Of a DNA stretch of 64,000 bases, positions 12,947 to 63,530 are shown piece after piece (positions within the stretch are counted from its first letter, which is position 1; every line of letters begins with the position of its first letter). Source of the stretch: Malacoraja senta (lineage: Eukaryota). Below the pieces are notes generated by a model that did no database searches, had not been told where the DNA came from, and was given only the letters and a program-made list of their open reading frames with translations. The position numbers and the translations under genes are program-made. The stretch lies in the NCBI GenBank assembly GCA_038087875.1, contig CM075994.1:2482001-2546000 (forward strand). Direction: 5' to 3'.

Positions 12947-15900
12947 CGGGACCGGTCCGCTGAAACTTACCGGCAGCTTTTAACGAGGGGTGAGTGACGT
13001 CATCAGACCAAGACTCCTGCCATTTAAATGTCGTTAACCCGTTCACCCCCGACGACGAAAACTTCTGCAAAACGAACAGCCAGGACAACGCCGCCGGAAG
13101 AAGAACTAGGCCAGACTGAAGCTTCGGCCTCAATTCCAGCGCCGACCCAAGAAGAAGCTCCCAGACAGTTCCGAAAGCCACAGCCTCAGCTACAGCCTAA
13201 AAAAATCGGACTGGATGAATTTCGAACTGTGGTTGGTGAGGAACTTTTAAGTATTAAGGAGGAATTTAAGGAAATGAAAGATGAATTAACGTCAGTGAAC
13301 GGACTGAAGGGAGAAATATCAACTATCATCACTGATAAGTTATCTTCAGTGAAGGAAGAAATATGTGACAGTATGGACGAACATATGGTGGAGGTAAACT
13401 CTAACCTACAAAAGTTGGAATCTGAATTTAGCAGTAAGTTGGAACCTATTATTGATGCGGTACAACAACATGATGTGGCTATACGCCACTTAGAAACACT
13501 AGCTGAGTCAAGTGCTGAAACAACAAAAAGAGTTTTAAACGAGACTCAGTGTCAATCTGATTTACTTGCTAAAGTAACCGAAAAATGTATTGATCTAGAG
13601 GGGCGCTCTAAACGTCAGAACTTAAGGATTGTTGGAGTTAAAGAAGGTAAAGAGAAAGGTAAAAACATACGTGACTTCACTGCTGAACTCCTACAAGAAG
13701 TTTTAAAACTGGATGAAAAACCTTTGCTGGACCGAGCCCACAGAGCACTGAGAGCTCGACCAGGTACTGGCGCCCCCTCAAGACATTTGATATAGAAGGT
13801 GCATTACTGTCATGTTTTAGAAGATATTTTGACGAGAATTGGTGCCAGCAAAAACTTAATATACCAAGGTGACAATATTTGTATTTTCAGAGATTATCCT
13901 GCGGAGGTTGTTAAGAGAAGAGCACTTTTTAACGAGACAAGAGCAATCCTGAGGAAGATTCCATCGCTCAGATATGGACTGCTGTATCCTGCCAAGCTGC
14001 GAGTCACCTACAAGGATAAAGAATCCTTCTTTACTGATCACAAAAAGGCATTTGAATTTGCTCGGGAGATTGAAAAGTCGTTGAAGGAGTGAATAACATC
14101 CCACGGCTTTAACAGCCGGCAGAGAACTGATTGGACTCTAAACTGGACTCTAAGGTGTTATAACTTAAAGATCTAACTTTGGTGAACAAGTTAGATAATT
14201 ATTAATTACTACTAATCATTACTAATATTTTTTTTAAATTAATTACTACTAATAAGAAGTTCAGGTAACACTTGACTTATGTAAACTTTACCTCTAATAC
14301 TTAACTAACAATCCCCAGGGGTGGAAATTGGCCTATTGTTGGATTAAACTCTTTTGGGCTTGTCCTGTTTACTTCCCCTTTCCTTTTCCTTTTTTAAAAA
14401 TTATAATTCTTTAAAACCGGAGCTAGTATTAATTTTATCAAAAGCTACGGAAGTTTTTGGATTTTTTGCCACAATAGGGTGGCTTTCACTAACTGCACCG
14501 TTTAAAGTTGTAGTTTTAGTCGCTTCTTTCTTTTTCCTGCACTCTTTTAACTCTTTACCTACTTATTTCATTTCTAATTTTTACCTCATTATTAAGAATT
14601 TATATATTTTTGGGAGACACCTTCGAGAGACAGATCAAACAGAACAAAAGCCATCCACCCTCTATTCAAGCAAAATGTTATGTCTAATGTGTTGAACCAT
14701 TTACTTTATCACAGACCATATAACTGATAAGATGCAAGACACTATCACGAAAATTGGGGGTAAAGGAATTACATTTTGTAGTTGGAATATCAAGGGCGTT
14801 GACGAACCAATTAAAAGAGGTAAAGTACTATCACACTAAAAATCAATTAATGCTGACATAATGTTCCTTCAGGAAACCCACCTTAAAAACGCAACACATA
14901 ATAGACTGAAAGGCAAATGGATTGATAAATTATATCATTCATCATTTCCCTTTAAGTCAAGAGGGGTAGCCATTTTAATTCGTAAGGGTATACCATTTAA
15001 ATATACCTCTTCTATTGTTGATACAGAAGGTAGATATGTTATACTAGTGGGTGAATTGCATTCAACAAGATTGATATTGGTGAATATTTATGCACCAAAC
15101 TTTGACAACCTGCAATTTTTAAAGAAAATATTGAAAACCATTCCAGAATTTGGACAATACAATTTGATAATTGGAGGAGATTTAAACTGTACACTAGATC
15201 CCTATTTGGATAGATCGTCAACTCAAAAGAAAACAAAATCCAAGTTGTCCGAATTATTAAATTCATATATAAACAGTGCAAATATAAAAGACATTTGGAG
15301 AATTGAAAACCCCTCAGGGCGAGAGTATTCATTTTATTCATCTTTATAAAACATATTCAAGAATTGATTATTTCTTAGTAGATTCCAAACATATTCCTTA
15401 TACGTATAACTCAAAATATCATAACATTATTATATCCAACCACTAACCTTTAGGGTAAAATTACAAGGAATATCGGAGAAACAGATAAATTGGAGATTTA
15501 ACCCACAAATCCTAAATGACAAGGCATGTTATGACTATCTTAAGTCGCAGATTAAAAACTTTTTTTCAGATAAATGACTTTCCAGAAATATCTGCTTCCC
15601 TGCTTTGGAAAACATTTAAAGCGTTTGTGAGAGGAGGAATTATTGCTTTTCAAGCTTCCCAAATAAGAAGAACCGAGCTGAACAATATGAGCTAGAAAGA
15701 CAGATAATACAGCTAGACATAGAAAATGCGATCGCCCCCTCTATTATAAAACATAATAAAATTGCTGCTCTCAAATATACTGTAGGTTAAATCATATACT
15801 TTCAGCTCAAATCTTAAGGCTTTTCCAGCATACTAAACAAACACACTTTGAATTTGGAGACAAACCATGGAAATTGTTAGCTCGTCAACTCCGTAAATTA

Positions 15901-45565: not shown

Positions 45566-45781
<216 letters not shown>

Positions 45782-46014: not shown

Positions 46015-48737
46015 TATGGAATGTTTAACTTAAACCTTGTTTCATCTTTCAATGTGTTCAGTACAAACCTTCAGAAATTCTTTCTCTGCGCTACTTGGGA
46101 TCCTAAGTTCTACTTTGCTGTAGCTGTACATGAACAGTGCAGCTGAGGATTAGAGAAAGAATAGCTCACAAGAGCTTGAACAGGACTCGGATGATGAGTT
46201 TGTCAGTGTTTACTTATTCACTATACTCCTGCTAGAGACCATGCATGGCATTTCCAGTATAGGAGTGCTCAGCATTCCATTAACAGGGATGTCTCCCAAC
46301 TGTCTCCACAAAATATTTCAGTCACTGGCAGGTCAAACCAATGTCCATTCCTCAATCAATATTCCCAATGTTGAAACTTCAGTTACCTAGTAGCCAATTT
46401 CCAAAACCCACTATGCCTCATCCGCTGAGTTTCTCCAGCATTTTTGTCTACCTTCAATTTTCCAGCATCTGCAGTTCCTTCTTAAACTATTCCTTGCTCT
46501 GTCAATGGGAAGAGATTACCAGGCAAACAGAAAAAGTAGTGGTCAAAGTTTAAACAATCCAACAATTCTACTGGGAATTAATGGCTTGCAATCACTCAAA
46601 GTGGAGGAGTAGCTTTGTGATTGTACCGAGGACGTCAAGGCCATGCGCAAGGAGGGCACTACCATACAAATGGTCCAACTTTGTTTTCCATGGAAAAGGC
46701 AGACCAGAGGTTTGACAGAAATGTATATGAGGTGACTGCTAAAAGGACAATGAGAGCTTTAAAATGGTTGAGGACTAAAGGGAAAGTGAATCAAGTGACA
46801 AGGATAATCTTGAGTCTGGAAAGCACTGCTTGCAAATGTGATGGTGAAGTGTTCCTTGTGGCCAACAAGAATCTACCAGTATCTAAGGTACCTATTATTT
46901 GTAAACCAGCATCTGCAGTTCCTTGTTTTTACAATGCATCACATTCGTGCTCAATAATCTTACAGCATAGTAGGATCAACACTTCAGATGTCTCGATTAA
47001 TCATAGCACGACCTTTGTCATCATTAATAAATACTGATTCAAAAAGTACAAAAAAATTGAATGTTTATAATTGTCATTTTATTCATAACAATTTCTTACA
47101 TTATCCTCAATTGACAAATCAATAAAATCATGCTTGACTTTAAAATGAGTTACTTTTATTAGAATATCTCCATAGATCTGTACATTGACATTGGAATACT
47201 CACAGCTCCAGCTGATGTGCATTGGCATTATGATCTATTATAAATATCAAGTTCATATTTTTGCAAACACACAAACTGAAATTAAACAGTAAAACACCAT
47301 TAATTCGTAAAAACTTGTGCTAAAACGTAAGAGAGCATTTCAAGAAAAATTGTAAGGATGTTAAAAAAAAAATGTTTTGCAGATTTTGCAAAGTATGTAC
47401 TGGTCTCAAATGTCAAGTTTAAATTTTTTTTAAATAATTACATTAAGCTTTTACGATGACCCATAGGAATCCAAGGACAAGAAAAGAGGTTTAAAAAGTA
47501 GATGCAGAATTGCCAGTGTAATGAGGTAATGGAGGACTGAGACAATAGGAGATTCCCTAGATGTTGTTTATTCTGCTGCTCTTTTAACCTAGAAAAATCA
47601 GTGCTGATCCTCATTCATTACAGAGTATTTTAGCAGTGGATATGTTGAATAGGATAGTATCATTTGACACTAATCTTCTAATCAATATGTGATTCAACAG
47701 TTTACAACAATGGTAGAACTTTCACCTCAATCGGTAAGTTATAGTTTTAACCTTCGCCCCATGGCCAACTCAGTCTAATTGAGGGAGTTTGGCGTCATTT
47801 GGTCGCCTGTAGATGATTCTTTGAACTGAAGTGCAGAATGATTAAATGAGGACCAGTAGTGTATTGTCTTGGTCGTATCTCATTTGCTCAATGCAACTAC
47901 AACACATTCAGTGATTTAAACTTAATACTGTGGGAGGAATCAGAATGGTTATGGTGCAGGAGTGGGTCCATCACAACTCACTCAATGTCAGAGCTTGTGC
48001 CATCAACCCCGCCCCCCTCCCAAATTCTATCCTTTCAGATACCATTTGAACTCAAGAACCAAATCTACCTCCTTACTCCTCCAGAACTGCATTCAAACCC
48101 AGTCACTCAACGCACAAAAAAATATTCCTTTTGGCCCTCTTGGTTCTTTTGCCATTATCTTCATTCTATACCTCTCGTTCTTGATTCTTCGTCCATTAGT
48201 ACATATAAACTTTAGTTTAGTTTAGAGATAGAGCGGAAACAGGCCCTTTGGCCCACCAAGCACTATCCTACACATTAGGGACAATTTACAATTTTTAACC
48301 AAAGCCAATTAACTTACAAACCTCTTTGGAGTGTGGAAGGAAACCGGAGTGCCAGGAAAAAACCCCACAGAGAGAACTTACTAACTCCGTACAGACAGCA
48401 CCCGTAGTCGGATCGAACCCGGGTCTCTGGCACTGTAAGGCAGCAACTCTGCCGCTGCACCGCTCCCTACTGTTCCTTAGTCCGACATTTAATTATTTTT
48501 AACACCTTTATTGGATCTCCCGCTATCTCCTCTGATTCAAGAACAACCACAAAACCAAAGTCCCTCACACCTTTAATCATTCCACAGCTTCAGTGCCCAA
48601 AATGGATGTTGCATTAGCCCAATCAATAAATAATAGCCCAATAAGACATCTAAATGCAGTTTATAAAAACATCAGAGACCATCAAGGACTGCAAGAAAAA
48701 GGGAGGATTGTATCTACATATATTCCAGTAACTAAGC

Positions 48738-48850
48738 CAGGGCTGCCAACATTGGGTGAGAGTTGGGAGTGAGAAACTGTGAGAGACCAAGCCCGAGGGA
48801 GCGTAGCGTAGCGACCGAGGGTGGGGGGAGGGTGTGGGAGGGGGGTAACC
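48738..48850 (+). mobile_element. hAT-like element left terminus (homologous terminus at about 9770-9904 on minus)
   Basis: CAGGGCTGCCAACATTGGGTGAGAGTTGGGAGT...; near-identical reverse complement at 9840-9904. Confidence 0.6.
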
Positions 48851-51207
48851 TGGGTCTCACTGCACACCTGGTACTACTCCTGACCCTGACTCCAGTTGCA
48901 TACCTGCACTCATTCCTGACCCTGAGACCTACCTTACACCTGGCCCCCTATTCTACCCTGATCATAGCGGCTTACCTGCTTAGGTTCCCAGTGCTGAACA
49001 CTCCCATTGTCCCAGCTTTGACTGCACACCTAGTACTATTCCAGTCCTTGACTCTGGATGCACACTTGGACTTGCTCCTAGCCCCTCTGCACTGACAATA
49101 TATCTGGCCCACAAATAAAGCCCCATATCTGACCCCCTGGACTTAACCTATTACGTTCAAGTCCACAGGTGCTTATCTAATGCGGTAATCTTTTATGGGG
49201 CACTTCACAGACCAAATTTTGTATAACAAAATTTGCTACATCCATTGGCTTCCTTGTTATCTAACATGCTAGTTACTTTGTCAACAAAGTCATCAATTGG
49301 TTGAACACAATTTCTCATCCATAAAATTATACTCACTCAGCTGTATAAGTATTCTCTGAACATTTCCTTCATTTTCCTAACAAACTGTCCTGAAGTCATT
49401 CTCACCCCTAATATTTTCGGTATTTTGCTGTCTTCCTCTCAGCTGGGACTTTTCCAAAATGCAAAGTCCAATAACTATATATTTAAGCAATATTATTCTA
49501 CTAAATGTGATCTTGAGAGTACATAATATTTTCTGTGGTCTTCATAACACAACAATCATAAAAAAGATCTTTGTTTTGATTGCACCAACCAACATGCATA
49601 CATTATTATATTACAGTTAATATGTACCGAGTGCAAATTTTTGTTCCAATGCTCCCCATTCCCAATTACTTTTACATTGAAGTGATTGAAATCCAAATGA
49701 AGTTTAAATGGCATCAGAAAAATAAAACCTCCGGAATGGATGATATTCATTACGTGGTTGGTTGGAGTCAGTATCAGCACAATTACTATATTAAACTTTG
49801 AATCTTCAGATGTCCTGGTTCAAGCTAAAACTAAAGACAAATAATAACCTCCTCACACATTCCCCTGCAAGTATCTCTGTCACTCCTTTAAAATATGCCC
49901 CTTCTTTGAACAGGCTCTTTAACATCGCATCTGAATCAGTTTCCATCTGATTACACTCCTTGAGGATGTTCATCTGCGTGTTCAATTAATAAAACAACGA
50001 AATTGGGGACATTTCTATTCAACCTGTCAAAGGAATTTAGTGGGGGGGGGGGGTTTAGAAATAGTCAGTGAGGTAAACAAACATAATAGTTGAGTGGCAA
50101 ATGACAATAGTGCTACCTTCCCAATGTTTAACTGAAGGAAATAATGGGTTATCAGGGCTGTATGTTGTGTCAGACAGCCTGACACCTTGCATGTCATTTT
50201 AATATTACACTTATCCCATCCCCCTGGATATTCCAGATTAATAAATTAAGGTTTTGTCAACTAATTACAAATCAGGCTAATTACAAATCAATAACATTAG
50301 CCAACTCCGAAACACGAAGGGCTGAGCATTGGGATCCAGACATCACGGACAACTGGCCACAGTTCCCCCACCCACGGTAGGTACTTTTTGATATATTAAA
50401 ATCATCTTTCAGTGCATTGTAGAAGAATGATTTCAATGATTTTTGTTTGGAGTATTTTTAAGAGGTAACTTTTTAAGGGGTAACTTTTTCCCCCCAAAGG
50501 GTGGTGGGTGTATGGAACAAGCTGCCAGAGGAGGTAGTTGAGGCAGGGACTATCCCAACATTTAAGAAACAGTTAGACTGATACATGGATAGGACAGGTT
50601 TGGAGGGATATGGACCAAAAGCAGGTAGTGTAGCTGGGACATGTTGGCAGGTGTGGGCAAGTTGCGCCGAAAGGCCTATTTTCACACTGTATTATATGAC
50701 TACATTATACCTCCACCATGCATGAATGCTTCCAAATCAAGTGGTCAAGTTTTATTGCCATATACTCAAGCATAGAAACATAGAAAATAAGTGCAGGAAT
50801 AGGCCATTCGGCCCTTTGAGCCAGCACTGCCATTCAATATGATCATGGCTGTTCATCTAAAATCAGTACTTCTTTCCTGTTTTTTCCCCATATCCCTTGA
50901 TTTCGCTAGCCCCAAGAGCTAAATGTAACTATCTTTTGAAAATATCCAGTGAATTGGCCTCCACTGCCTTCTGTGGCAGAGAATTCCACAGATTCACAAC
51001 TCTCTGCGTGAAGAAAGTTTGTCCTCATCTCAGTCCTACCCTTTATTCTTAAACTGTGACCCCCTGGTTCTGAACTCCAACATCGGGAATTTTTTTCTTG
51101 CAGTTACAGTAAGTGAAAATCTAGCAGGCAAGCAGAATGCTTTCTCCAACCACCCCTATTTGAAGGCCACTATCTTCCACCGTTTATACCCAGTGCTTGG
51201 TACTTAC

Positions 51208-51459
51208 TTCCAGCAGCCACTGGTTGTCCTTCAGGATGCACCGAGCTGCAGCCTGATCCATGACTGTCACCTGGGCGAATTCGGCACAGAGACTCTCACA
51301 GCAGCGGCGCAACGCTTTTGACGCCTCCGTCGGCCCGGGACTCTTGCACTGAGGCTGCTCCATGGCCGGAGCTGCTGCAAGCGACTCGCCAGCCCGGCAA
51401 ACACTCGCCAACCCCGGCTCCCCGTCCGCATCTGTCCCCGCCGCTGCTTCTGCTTCCAT
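51208..51459 (-). pseudogene. Isolated TDP2 (TTRAP)-like first coding exon, UBA-like N-terminal region
   Basis: MEAEAAAG...RRCCESLCAEFAQVTVMDQAAARCILKDNQWLLE followed by a phase-0 GTAAGTA donor; resembles TDP2 LCVEFASVASCDAAVAQCFLAENDWEME; GC-rich; no downstream TDP2 exons seen. Confidence 0.65.
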
Positions 51460-51499
51460 CCCTCCCTCAGCCCCGGCTCTCCAACACCCACGGACAATT

Positions 51500-51633
51500 C
51501 AATTGATATGAATTTTGAAATTGTCGTTGATCACAGAATTTCTCACGACAGAGCGTGAGAAATTTGTGATCAGCGTGAGAATTTGGTGAAATGCGTGATT
51601 CTCACGCTCAATGCGTGAGATTTGGCAGCCCTG
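51500..51633 (+). mobile_element. hAT-like element right terminus with subterminal GCGTGAGA repeats
   Basis: Ends TTGGCAGCCCTG, the inverse of the 48738 terminus; several direct and inverted gcgtgaga/tctcacg motifs. Confidence 0.6.
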
Positions 51634-53793
51634 CAAAGCAATTATTTAATCCTTCAATTCACATGGATACATTACCTTGTTCAGGCACTGTCCGCATCAC
51701 GTCAACACACAAGGGCACTCGCTCTAGTTGTCTTCATTGTCACAGATGTGGAATGGCTGAAGATTGGTAGTTTAGAGCTGGAGGCAATTTGGTTGGTTTG
51801 TCACCAAGTTTGCTGGGAACAATTTATATGAGGAAATGGGAATGCAATTCATATGATGGCTAGAACATATATTGATGTTGTACAGGGTGACACCACTGTT
51901 GGGGAAATCAGAGTCACCCAGTAATTGGTGAGGTATAGAGTTTGAAGCATGGGCCTTTATGACACATCAAGGGTTTGGAAGTGTTATTATAAGAATTATG
52001 CCCAATCATGCAGTTATATGTAGGGTTTTACTTTTAAGATCTAACGAATATTCGATTAAAATAACATTGCAATTGCTGGACCAGATATGATTAAACCCTG
52101 TTTGAGATGTGGATCTGCAGTGGAGACAGTAGGCCTCACTTTGTCTCCCTGAAGCGATTAGACACCGCAAGCTGATTTTGAATCTTTTATGTCCCTTTCA
52201 TACAGCAAAATAATTTTGAGCTGGTAAACTTGAAAAAATGTAGGTAAATCGCATTGGAAACTAATTAGACTTCCCGAGTGTACACTGCAACGATCATGTA
52301 CAGAGCATGTGTTACAGTTCCTCAGTGCAGCCACAAATACACCTTGCTCTACTTGAATCAACCCAAAGATGAGATTCTGCCAGAATCCTGCCTTTATTCT
52401 CTTCTCAATCAGCTGCTCATTCTTTTGAGCTTTGTAGGACCCACACATAGATATGAGACCAAGGTGGCAGATGTGTCTACTTTGCAAATTTGCTTCAATT
52501 AATAAACTATTTTATGTTCCTGAGGGATACAAGTTTATTCCTTCTCATGAAAGGAGTAAAAAAAGTAAATTTAAAATTACTTGCATCCTCCTTGTATTGC
52601 ACTATATTTACAAGTCCAAAATCTGGAATGTCGAATAACCATATTTGAGTGGCACAGGAATGTTTTCAAAATAAATATTTTCAGTTCTGTTAGATGTTTA
52701 TTGCCTGGAACATTGGAAAATACTGATTTTCAATCAGACCAAAGCTTAAATACTTTTGCAAGATAAAAATAAATAAGGAAAAATAGAATATATTTAGCTA
52801 GGTAGGATTAGGGCAAGGATAGTTAGAGATAGCAATAGTGAGAAAGATTAATTACAAATGGTTATTATCCTAATTTAGGGCAGGTATTTAGATGTTACGG
52901 CAATTATACTCTCTAAAGCAGAACTAAATGCCCTTTCATGATACCAAGAAAAGCAAGTCAGACCATGACGAAAGAAACATCCAAAGAAATGTCTGTATGG
53001 TTTCAAGTACAGGGCAGTTGAGGGTAATTTACTGGTGAGAAATAACTCCTGTAAACAATAATGCTTTAGTAGTCTGAACAGAGCTAACTTCCCTTTCTGA
53101 CATTAGCTCTTAAATTGTAGTGCCAGGTATTACTTACATAAGTATCTAAAATTGTATCATGTTCTAAAAGAAAGAGATTGAAATTTCAATCTTGATTTAT
53201 ACTAGATTTTTTGTTTAGAGAGTAGCTTTAACTTTATAAAGTACAACATTGTCATAGTGCTAATTCCAGGAGAGTCGAGAATGTCAATCTCCGGCCCACA
53301 GCTTAATTTATTTATTAGACACTTGATTTTAAAACACCATCATAAGCACCATCCAAAATGTTGCTTTAAAAAGTTACCTCATTACCCCACTCTAGGGTTT
53401 GAATCACCTTGTGTATGGCATCAAGTCTAAAAACAGGCTCACAACACAAACATTCATATCATTACACTTGTTCATAAGGTATAAATGACTTTAGAAGCTA
53501 CATGATTTGTTTTCTGATAAAACTGTACACACCAATTAATCCCCATTGAAGGAAGAAAAATGCTCATCTTCAACACAGTGATCTGATCCTTCAAGATATC
53601 GATGAGGAAAGAACAACTAGGTGAGGTGGCAGAGTGTGAAATAATTAAATATTTACAGATGGAGTTACCAGTGAGAGATCTCAGCTAAGAAGATGCCGAC
53701 ATGAAAATCAGTTCAAAGAAAATTTGGTTCCATCATCCATTCTCAGAATTTAACAAGATGTCCTTGGAATCGATGAGTCCTCTAAGATGTACT

Positions 53794-53872
53794 TCAATCA
53801 CTATCAGACTCATCCTGATACTTGGATTTATTGGCACGGCCATTTTGTAGAGGCATCTCTTCATAATCACTC
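53794..53872 (-). CDS. TMEM181: TMEM181 last coding exon (SDYEEMPLQNGRANKSKYQDESDSD*)
   Basis: TTTCTTTACAAG acceptor, 79 nt to TGA; acidic C-terminal tail typical of TMEM181; upstream exons presumably lie beyond the window. Confidence 0.93.
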
Positions 53873-59678: not shown

Positions 59679-61074
59679 CTGAAAAAACAAACAGATTTAA
59701 GCCAAAACTTTACCTTTTGTATTGTGATAAACAACAAAGAAATTGAGAGAAAACACTAAATTATGTTAACACTAAATTAACTCTAAGTTACTGAGAAAAT
59801 ATGTGGCTGTAACGATCCCTCTTGTGGGCCAATTAACAAAGTTTTAAAGTGTTAACAATCAACAATCAGTTTTATTCGTCACATTGCACATAAAGTGCAA
59901 GTGAAATTAATTTGCCAGCAGCGGTACAATGACAAAGAACACACAAAAACACACAAAAAAATTTAACACAAACATCCACCACAGCATTCATCACTGTGGT
60001 GGAGGGCACAAAATTTGGCCAGTCCTCCTCCATTTCCCCCCGTGGTCGGGACCTTAACCCTCCGCTGCGGGCGTCCAGATGTACAGACAGGTAAAAGTCC
60101 AGGTAAGTCCAGAATCGGCTCTTCCCCACCGGAGACCGCGGCTTCAGGTTGGTGTAGGCCGCAGGCAGGCAGTCGAAGATTTAAAGTCTCCGCCGCGCCG
60201 CAGCCAGAAGCACCGCAGACCACGGGGCCGGCAGTCGAAGCTCCCCTCCAGGGGTCCCCGGCGAGGGACCCCGCTCCTGATGGTAAGTCGCCACCACACC
60301 CGCGGTAGAAGCTGGCCGCGGGCCGGCGGTGGAAGCTTCTTCATCTCCCGGGTCCCCCACAAGGGATCCCAGGCTGCAGACGCCGCGCCAGCTGGAGCTC
60401 CGCAGACCGCGACTTCAGGAGCGCTCCCGTGATGTGAAGAGTTTCAGCAAAATAATTTAAAAATCTAGTTTAGTTAGGATTTCAAAAGGAAATCGCTGGA
60501 GAAATATGGTCAGAAATCTAATACTCAACTTTTCTTTATATTAAGTAATCCATTTTGTCTCTGGTTAGATCAGTCTTGAAAATGGATGCAAAGTTTACCT
60601 GCAAATAATCACCCCAGCTCTAACCTGCCTGTCACCCTGAACTCTTACTAACATGAGTTTGAGGAAGACCACCCCATCTTCTGACTGCGCACACTGCAGC
60701 TTTCCTCACTCAATACCAAATTCTACACCGTTGGACTACTCCCTTTCTCCATCCGTATGTGTACTTTACTTTAGTACTTTAGAGATACAGCACGGAAATA
60801 GGCCCTTTGGCCCACCGAGTCCGTGGCAACTAGCGATCACCCCATACACCAATCTACACACAATTTGGGACAATTTAACAACTTTCCGAAGCTAATTAAC
60901 CTACAAACCTGTACTCCTTTGAAGTGTGGGAGGAAACCGGATCACCTGGAGAAAAACCTCAACCAAGGATGGAGTAAATGGAGTCTTTCCCGTTATTGTA
61001 AGTGGAGTCTCATTAGACAAGTGTACTAAGTCAGACATCATTTACAGTAATTAGAAAACCATACAACACCAACA

Positions 61075-63530
61075 CCTGTGACTGCAGCCTATATTCCTCC
61101 TGATGCTAATGCCAAGCTTGCAATGAAAGATCTGCATACTGCCATTAGCAAACAACAGACTCACAACCCCGAGGCAGCCTTCATTGTTGCGGGTGACTTC
61201 AATCACTCCAACCTGAAGACTGTACTCCCCAAATTCCACCAACATTTCTCCTTCGCCACTAGAGAAGACAAGACACTGGACAAAGTCCACACCAACATGG
61301 CTGAAGCTTACAAAGCCGTCCCCCTCCCCCACCTTGGACAGTCTGATCACCTCTCATTGTTCCTGCTCCCAAAGTACTCCCCACTCATCAGACGGGTTAA
61401 ACCCACTGTGAGGACAGTTAAAGTCTGGTCAGAGGAGGCGGACTCCACACTTCAGCAGTGTTTTGGAAACACTGACTGGAAGGCGTTTGCAGCCCAGGCC
61501 ACCCTTGACTCCCACACGGACATTGACTCCTATACATCCTCTGTTCTGGACTTTTATAAACGCCACCATCAACAGTGTCACCTCCCTCAAACGGGTGACC
61601 ATATTCCCGAATCAGAAGCCATGGATGGACAGCGAGGTCAGGCTACTGCTGAAAGCACGGGACACCGCTTTCAGGTCAGGCGATGCCCGAGCCTATAGTT
61701 CATCCAGGGCTAACCTGAAGAAGGGCATAAAGAAGGCCAAGCACTGCCATAAGCTCAGGATTGAGGAGCACTTCAACAACAACTCCGACCCCCGACGCAT
61801 GTGGCAAGGCATCCAGGCCATCACGGACTTTAGACCCAACACCACCCCCACATCCAGCAATACCTCCTTCCTCGAGGAGCTTAACCACTTCTATGGCCGC
61901 TTCGATAGGGACAATTGGCAGTTGGCCATCAAGGCGGTGCTCCCTGCTGATCACCAGCCCCTCTCACTCACCCCCTACGACGTGTACGTGGCACTGAGTA
62001 GGACTAATGCACGTAAGGCTGCTGGCCCCGCCGGCATCCCCGGGCGCGTCCTCAGGGCCTGTGCTGCGCAGCTGACAGACGTCTGGACTGACATCTTCAA
62101 CCTGTCACTTGCCCAAGCAGTTGTGCCCACGTGCCTTAAATCCACCTCCATCGTGCCGGTGCCAAAACACTCCACTGCGGCAAGCCTCAACGACTTCCGC
62201 CCAGTTGCACTTACTCCCATCATCGCCAAGTGCTTCGAGAGGCTGGTCCTGGCACACCTCAAAGGCTGCCTACCCCCCACATTGGATTCCTATCAGTTTG
62301 CCTACCGCAAGAACAGGAATACGGAGGATGCCATCTCAACGGCACTTCACTCCGCCCTCTCCCACCTCGACAACAGAGACACTTACGTAAGAATGCTGTT
62401 CATCGATTACAGCTCAGCATTCAACACCATCATACCCTCTAAACTGATCACCAAACTCGGTGACCTGGGCATCGACCCCTCCCTCTGCTGGATACTGGAC
62501 TTTCTAACCAACAGACCCCAGTCTGTTAGGTTAGACAAGCACACCTCTTCAACCCTCACCCTGAACACCGGCGTTCCACAGGGCTGTGTGCTGAGCCCCC
62601 TCCTCTACTCCTTCTTCACCTACGACTGTACACCTGTACATGGTACTAACACCATCATCAAGTATGCAGATGATACAACGGTGATTGGCCTCATCAGCAA
62701 CAACGATGAGTCGGCCTATAGGGAGGAGGTCCAGCTCCTAAGCAGCATGGTGCGCTGACAACAACCTGGTCCTTAACTCCAAGAAGACCAAGGAGCTCAT
62801 TGTAGACTTCAGGAAGTCTAGGGGCGGCACGTACACCCCCATCCACATTAACGGGACGGAGGTGGAACGTGTTTCCAGCTTCAGGTTCCTGGGGGTCAAC
62901 ATCTCCGATGACCTCTCTTGGACCCACAATACCTCAACTCTGGTCAAGAAGGCTCATCAGCGTCTTTTCTTCCTGAGGAGACTAAAGAAGGTCCATCTGT
63001 CTCCTCAGATTCTGGTGAACTTCTACCGCTGCACCATCGAGAGCATCCTTACCAACTGCATCACAGTATGGTATGGCAACTGCTCTGTCTCCGACCGGAA
63101 AGCACTGCAGAGGGTGGTGAAAATTGCCCAACGCATCACCGGTTCCTCACTCCCCACCATTGAGTCTGTCCAAAGCAAGCGTTGTCTGCGAAGGGCGCTC
63201 AGCATCGCCAAGGACTGCTCTCACCCCAACCACAGACTGTTTACCCTCCTACCATCCGGGAGGAACTACAGGTCTCTCCGTTGCCGGACCAGCAGGTCCA
63301 GGAACAGCTTCTTCCCTGCGGCTGTTACACTACTCAACACTGTACCTCGGTGACTGCCAATCACCCCCCTCCCCCCCCCCCGGACACTCCTCCCACCAGG
63401 ATTTATTAGATTTATTTATTTACTGCTCATATTTATGTCGCTCTTCTAGGGAGATGCTAACTGCATTTCGTTGTCTCTGTACTGTACACTGCACAATGAC
63501 AATAAAGTTGAATCTGAATCTGAATCTGAA
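61075..63530 (+). mobile_element. Rex1/Babar LINE, 5'-truncated, endonuclease end plus RT with few frameshifts
   Basis: AYIPP..AGDFNH..SDH endonuclease; [35 protein letters not shown]; (tgaatc)n tail. Confidence 0.93.

Follow-up and report, generated by a model that had tools for sequence, protein, structure and literature searches.

Gene capture by cut-and-paste transposons in animals has been reported as mostly a single-copy affair, against about 1,500 copies for the element described here. In a survey of 100 animal genomes, Tan et al. (2021) describe four multicopy Pack-TIR cases, with the example given there being present in three copies (PMC8277862). The filters outlined in that paper, a unique best hit and at least 90% identity (PMC8277862), are likely to miss cargo of such high copy number. 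Nearest to the present element in scale and cargo is the bat Helitron HelibatN3, which by its published account carries the promoter, first exon and partial intron of NUBPL at thousand-copy scale, with a bias to gene 5′ ends and stepwise capture (PMC4224331).

The window, the 64,000-nucleotide stretch of Malacoraja senta DNA analysed here, very probably contains a copy of the TDP2 5′ end (leader, exon 1 and the start of intron 1), a fragment dispersed through the genome in an estimated 1,500 copies and carried here by a non-autonomous cut-and-paste transposon, likely of hAT type, with the remains of a second transposon inside it; the fragment itself is likely a decaying passenger. The features of this copy, which spans 48738-51633, are collected in Table 1. 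Across the whole window the 12-mer terminus occurs exactly only at 48738 (plus strand) and 51633 (minus strand), and the flanks form a 6-bp target duplication with one mismatch, which bears out the paired inverse termini and imperfect duplication proposed in an earlier sequence-only reading. The terminus which that reading placed beside the 5′ flank of the exon is indeed an element end, corrected here in that the TIR of the family is 13 bp long and that 174 bp separate the ATG from the terminus. The right end contains five short subterminal repeats, CGTGAGA in either orientation. About 270 bp held by most copies are deleted after 48846, and the inner TIR and insertion junction are deleted at the left arm of the inner element. 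For the older cargo, all 40 source candidates scored were element-like copies. The longest stop-to-stop frame of the window copy is 122 aa and no transposase is coded.

Table 1. Features of the TDP2-carrying element copy and its flanks (window positions).
Feature	Position	Strand	Remarks
Left target-site duplication CTAAGC	48732..48737	+	flank reading; 6-7-bp duplications family-wide
Outer element, left end	48738..48846	+	13-bp TIR 48738-48750; 948 exact 25-mer matches genome-wide
Outer element's older cargo, 1.5 kb	48847..50368	.	also in the TDP2-less precursors L157 and L162
Inner element, left-arm remnant	50362..50463	+	matches standalone inner elements L036 and L190
Captured TDP2 intron 1, ~720 bp	50476..51207	-	two old repeat fragments in parental order
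Captured TDP2 coding exon 1, 84 codons	51208..51459	-	GT donor 51207-51206
Captured TDP2 5′ leader	51460..51492	-	longer variants retain more upstream sequence and the inner right end
Outer element, right end	51500..51633	+	TIR 51621-51633, identical at 12 of 13 bases; family 27-mer matched exactly 541 times
Right target-site duplication CAAAGC	51634..51639	+	flank reading

The copy sits between two convergent gene 3′ ends, with a last exon that we take to be of DYNLT1 type (plus strand, ending at 45781) on one side and a last coding exon presumably of TMEM181 type (minus strand, ending at 53794) on the other; the C-terminal peptide assignment is likewise our presumption, while the Pfam families were computed. 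The window also holds two LINE remnants on the plus strand, one at 61051-62755 with a reverse-transcriptase frame of 448 aa and one at 14768-15187 whose endonuclease-like sequence gives a weak match to the catalytic domain of TDP2.

The open TDP2-like exon with ATG and donor that had been proposed was recovered as an open frame of 84 codons with the ATG context GGGATGG and the donor GTAAGT. Its peptide is 73% and 80% identical to TDP2 of two skates (E 3e-22 and 9e-16) and also matches the human TDP2 UBA structure 6q00. The Pfam UBA_4 score of 17.4 bits lies under the cut-off of 21.8, with profile positions 2-29 of 43 covered; relative to the parent the exon carries a 24-bp in-frame deletion, and the UBA domain is truncated. 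A search for TDP2 exons 2-7, in which all 77 candidates were scored, gave 12 matches, all on contig C19 and none on the window contig, and the possibility that the window contains the true TDP2 gene was rejected. The parent locus, for which a search had been proposed, was thereby found as a tandem pair of TDP2 genes (A and B) whose first exons both end at the same donor. None of the three results that the sequence-only reading had named as counting against it (absence of a TDP2 match, unrelated termini, remaining exons nearby) was encountered; unrelated termini were rejected on the grounds that the same ends and target duplications recur across family copies.

The TDP2 fragment was captured at the DNA level, because intron 1 is retained and is colinear with the parent. 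The load of the window element amounts to about 1 kb (5′ leader, coding exon 1 and part of intron 1), and the element follows the parents through the leader, exon 1, about 720 bp of intron 1 and two repeat fragments in order, with intron 1 at the place claimed earlier. A processed pseudogene or retroposed copy was rejected on account of the same intron, and the previous view of DNA-level capture as opposed to retroposition is sustained. The element consensus is 90% identical to the parents in the exon and 92% (A) and 88% (B) in the intron, the corresponding intron values of the window copy being 89% and 85%. Some element residues are common to TDP2 of other skates and absent from the TDP2 genes of this genome, as expected of an old copy. 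At the parent breakpoints neither the outer end nor the inner left arm is present. Derivation from a gene of 5′-phosphotyrosyl repair, as the sequence-only reading put it, is correct as to the TDP2 parent, while the link to repair is incidental because the captured piece contains no catalytic sequence.

Within the TDP2 pair itself (C19:4603402-4712640), exon 1 is 96% alike between the copies, while the later exons of copy B have diverged much further from TDP2 of other skates; this combination suggests that exon 1 may have undergone gene conversion. Copy B has AAG in place of the first ATG.

The exon query (401 bp) gave 2029 first-look candidates genome-wide, and all 39 non-self matches scored were 91-94% identical over nearly the whole query and spread over many contigs. 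A 24-mer spanning the donor is found without mismatch at 541 places in the genome, its backward control at none, and among 87 loci examined 17 of the 49 covering the motif and not picked by the exon match it exactly. The calibrated copy number is about 1,500 (estimate ~1,560; range 1,090-2,500), a figure that counts tandem exon repeats inside elements and possible assembly duplicates and may be inflated. The proposed copy count thus returned many dispersed copies; such copies can confuse both the annotation of skate TDP2 and read mapping. Fourteen full-length copies are 94.5-97.1% identical to their own 3,344-bp consensus. The suggestion that other copies would share the TIRs and target duplications was confirmed on 31 end pairs, one segmental duplicate having been dropped and five pairs with an internal right end set aside: the duplication is exact at 6 bp in ten, 7 bp in nine and 8 bp in one, has one mismatch in eight and is absent from three, compared with 1 exact and 13 one-mismatch cases among 930 mismatched pairs. 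When 18 elements were picked by both ends only, TDP2 exon was present in seven (one partial) and other sequence in 11, which indicates that one set of ends carries several cargos. With the ends of one TIR family, target duplications, a host parent, a retained intron and no transposase, the outer element has the features of a multicopy Pack-TIR. In five TDP2-less outer copies (L071, L074, L076, L079 and L080) another element is nested, and this contains a GC-rich segment with a donor.

The outer ends are probably of hAT type, although the superfamily is unproven because none of the 70 hAT and 30 P loci inspected links a transposase to either end set. Short TIRs starting with CAGGG together with subterminal repeats are typical of hATs, and the 13-bp TIR and five short right-end repeats of the outer element are hAT-like in this sense. 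The duplications are 6 bp (10) and 7 bp (9) for the outer element and 5 bp for the inner one (exact in three of six standalones and near in a fourth, with TGAAC in the composites as well), whereas hATs usually make 8-bp duplications (PMC12730594); with an 8-bp length in one of 20 exact duplications, the element was not filed as a canonical hAT. The animal Blackjack lineage, as described in the same source, includes a hAT5 group (5 bp) and a hAT6 group (6 bp) (PMC12730594), whose duplications fit the inner and outer elements, respectively; the outer element differs from hAT6 in that its duplications are 6 bp and 7 bp long about equally often. The initial hAT assignment therefore stands as far as a real transposon is concerned and is weakened in its label, given the want of a linked transposase and duplications of 6-7 bp in place of the usual 8. 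Less probable, though still a serious competitor, is that the ends belong to another superfamily, P-like or other, that makes 6-7-bp duplications. This would agree with the unusual duplication length, with the abundance of P-type transposases in this genome and with the finding that none of 70 hAT loci examined (150 scored, 1648 candidates) has a transposase between these ends, four loci merely containing or adjoining inserted copies of the element. It is opposed by the fit of the hAT5 and hAT6 groups to both elements, by the hAT-typical termini, and by the absence of shared ends from 30 P loci inspected with 1.5-kb flanks, nearly all of one young family. That family of P-superfamily transposases (L121-L150, e.g., C1:237360382-237363726) is mostly 96-99% identical, and its open frames reach about 790 aa. 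Close to a hAT transposase remnant is a 0.9-kb element whose termini are related, CAGAGCTGCCAAG (L255:1599-2490).

The captor of TDP2 is the inner element, which makes a 5-bp duplication and of which one copy then inserted in the outer element. The TIR that closes six exon-bearing loci without outer ends is a different one, and the TDP2 piece of longer composites is still enclosed by these inner ends. The inner-left end has 217 exact matches, and among 40 loci taken in list order 30 place it at one identical junction inside the outer element, the other ten being standalone elements, four with TDP2 and six with other sequence. Six standalones with both ends show an exact 5-bp duplication in three cases, one mismatch in one and no clear duplication in two, and TGAAC stands on both sides of the inner element in the composites L086, L174, L177, L189 and L218. 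The segment to the right of the inner element recovered 30 loci, namely 19 composites, four with an uninterrupted site and seven of a third family; in two of the uninterrupted loci, L157 and L162, the older cargo and the outer right end are present, which makes them empty outer precursors.

Characters scored on 94 exon-bearing loci (a few fetched twice) nest cleanly. A parent-length exon is found only in the standalones L203 and L213, the 24-bp exon deletion is common to the other standalones and the composites, a 560-bp inner segment survives in standalones and in a single composite, and the short class, to which the window copy belongs, has lost the inner right end. A parent-length flag on L184 was rejected as an alignment artefact of an internal duplication. 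Capture happened once, because all standalones share both TDP2 breakpoints. The tree, from which L174 was left out as too short, is star-like and weakly places the parents beside L203 and L213, with two of 42 branches starred; it is too star-like to order the subfamilies alone.

The third family, which we take to be Tc2-like, has TA-flanked CCGTATTTCC ends (L152, L154, L159, L161, L164, L176 and L179, at about 1000-2240) and carries a scrap of the outer family's right end as well as a GC-rich exon-like segment that also serves as insertion target of the TDP2 element. This second exon-like cargo has one unnamed read-through protein as its sole match and may be an exon in its own right. Standalone inner elements at L190:400-1939 (reverse), L204 and L198 hold other sequence that is in part GC-rich and promoter-like, L190 with several CCAAT-box-like words.

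These observations give the following history, in which parent-like standalones, empty outer precursors, and long and short composites are the surviving stages; since each intermediate is preserved, the order of events can be read directly. Briefly, the inner element first took up about 1.2 kb of TDP2 DNA, once, as the shared breakpoints and colinear intron show, probably by template switching during break repair, and then transposed alone. One subfamily next lost 24 bp of the exon, and one inner copy entered an outer element that already existed and had 13-bp TIRs, with TGAAC duplicated in the process. The outer ends, presumably mobilised in trans by a hAT-type transposase, amplified the composite with 6-7-bp duplications, while successive deletions, in an order suggested by the nested characters, stripped the inner arms down to the short form of the window. 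Finally, the copies would have been methylated and mutated near-neutrally, as CpG loss, frameshifts and dN/dS suggest.

Template switching has been proposed for multicopy Pack-TIRs in the animal survey (PMC8277862). Less likely for the first capture is that, without template switching, two insertions on either side of the TDP2 5′ end were excised together, for which the published Arabidopsis account of Pack-CACTA offers a precedent (PMC6379663). The sister outer element in an intron of TDP2 copy A (L065/L066, C19:4687337-4691275), with one left and three stacked right ends, also speaks for it, since the stacked ends show that borrowing of ends occurs in this family; it is bounded by an exact ACTAAA duplication, and the same internal right end also terminates five other loci. 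Against joint excision, however, the inner left arm, the arm compared, is unmatched in 13 stretches of the parent locus, and both breakpoints lie well inside the inner element.

The TDP2 cargo is likely a decaying passenger that mutates near-neutrally. In a set of 46 copies, 40 of them chosen by likeness to the window copy, the full exon is present in 44 and open in 28. One of 18 indels preserves the frame, CpG transitions are about six times as frequent as other transitions, and dN/dS is 0.75-0.84 by class. Synonymous changes number 175 against 152 expected (naive p 0.02, for copies that are not independent), a slight excess that is not decisive because the copies share history. Protein searches, covering long and short proteins, gave no chimeric protein with the captured exon: the longer matches are two true TDP2s, the short ones are three unnamed exon-only or unspliced read-through frames, and the Amblyraja match is a TDP2-like paralogue. 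Exon shuffling of the Pack-MULE kind, as claimed earlier, is not demonstrated: neither the catalytic domain nor the last part of the UBA domain is in the cargo, its decay is near-neutral, and no chimeric protein containing it was found.

The family is present at high depth in contigs of three runs (organisms A, D and F, of which D may be the source organism). These contigs also include flanks of the window locus that extend into the termini by 25-38 bases and differ by 0-4%; of the six flank pieces, two reach the 31-base bar. From these contigs the window insertion appears likely to be common to related species.

A broader scheme, in which a hAT5/hAT6-like skate relay repeatedly harvests CpG-island first exons, passes them between families and thereby supplies a portable first exon that drives or splices new transcripts at some of more than 1,000 sites, is speculative and rather unlikely. 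Still less credit is given to the proposal that the cargo is useful as such, its GC-rich leader, ATG and donor forming a portable promoter and first exon that aids spread or host splicing. The GT donor is kept in 42 of 44 copies, and ATG, frame and donor together in 27, so that exonisation of individual copies is possible; the slight synonymous excess, the other GC-rich sequences carried by both families and the higher copy numbers reported for bat Helitrons with gene 5′ ends (PMC4224331) point the same way. However, frameshifting indels accumulate freely, the protein searches give only true TDP2s and unspliced read-throughs, and the window copy lies where two genes converge with their 3′ ends. 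In a polyA run of a related organism, about 6% of which was read, repeats dominated to the point that donor junctions could not be seen; exon depth was 7-23 per strand, possibly including true TDP2 reads, and on neither strand exceeded that in other parts of the element, with zero reads in the right flank (51648-52000).

A one-step capture, in which the outer CAGGGCTGCCAAC element took TDP2 directly as the sequence-only reading had claimed for the named termini, is scarcely tenable: in the window copy alone the TDP2 leader adjoins the outer right end with no inner TIR left, whereas longer copies keep a second end pair around TDP2 with the TGAAC duplication (L086), standalone inner elements have an exon closer to the parent (L203, L213), and outer elements without an inner one occur (L157, L162). 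When a cargo-bearing element inserts in another, the outer ends come to look like those of the captor, and such nested capture sits in a blind spot of published screens. The composite family also provides more than 1,000 natural replicates for asking how often hosts adopt a ready-made first exon.

A search of the published literature for TDP2 fragment capture or skate cases found none; Repbase and Dfam, which lay outside its scope, may catalogue the element. Among animal Pack-TIRs, Pack-hAT-N8_XT with the CAPSL 5′ UTR is, as described, likewise a non-autonomous TIR element holding a DNA-level copy of a GC-rich gene 5′ part, with its parent on another contig and distinct target duplications (PMC8277862); the present case differs from that description in its roughly 1,500 copies, in its coding exon with donor and in the hand-over between two elements. 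The plant Pack-MULE, Pack-CACTA and Pack-TYPE elements share with it, in the accounts consulted, one end set with many cargos and fragments of several loci per element (PMC6379663, PMC8903248), while here the host is a vertebrate and cargo is passed on by Pack-into-Pack insertion. The turtle REP-21_CPB is reported as a hybrid that arose by insertion into a DNA transposon and reached thousands of copies (bioRxiv 10.1101/2021.11.26.470093), its passenger by that report being a LINE fragment in contrast to the host exon inside a second DNA transposon seen here. HelibatN3 differs, on its published description, in being a rolling-circle element (PMC4224331), whereas the skate family has cut-and-paste ends and target duplications. 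Taken together, the TDP2 element is a new form of animal Pack-TIR, one of high copy number that arose in two stages.
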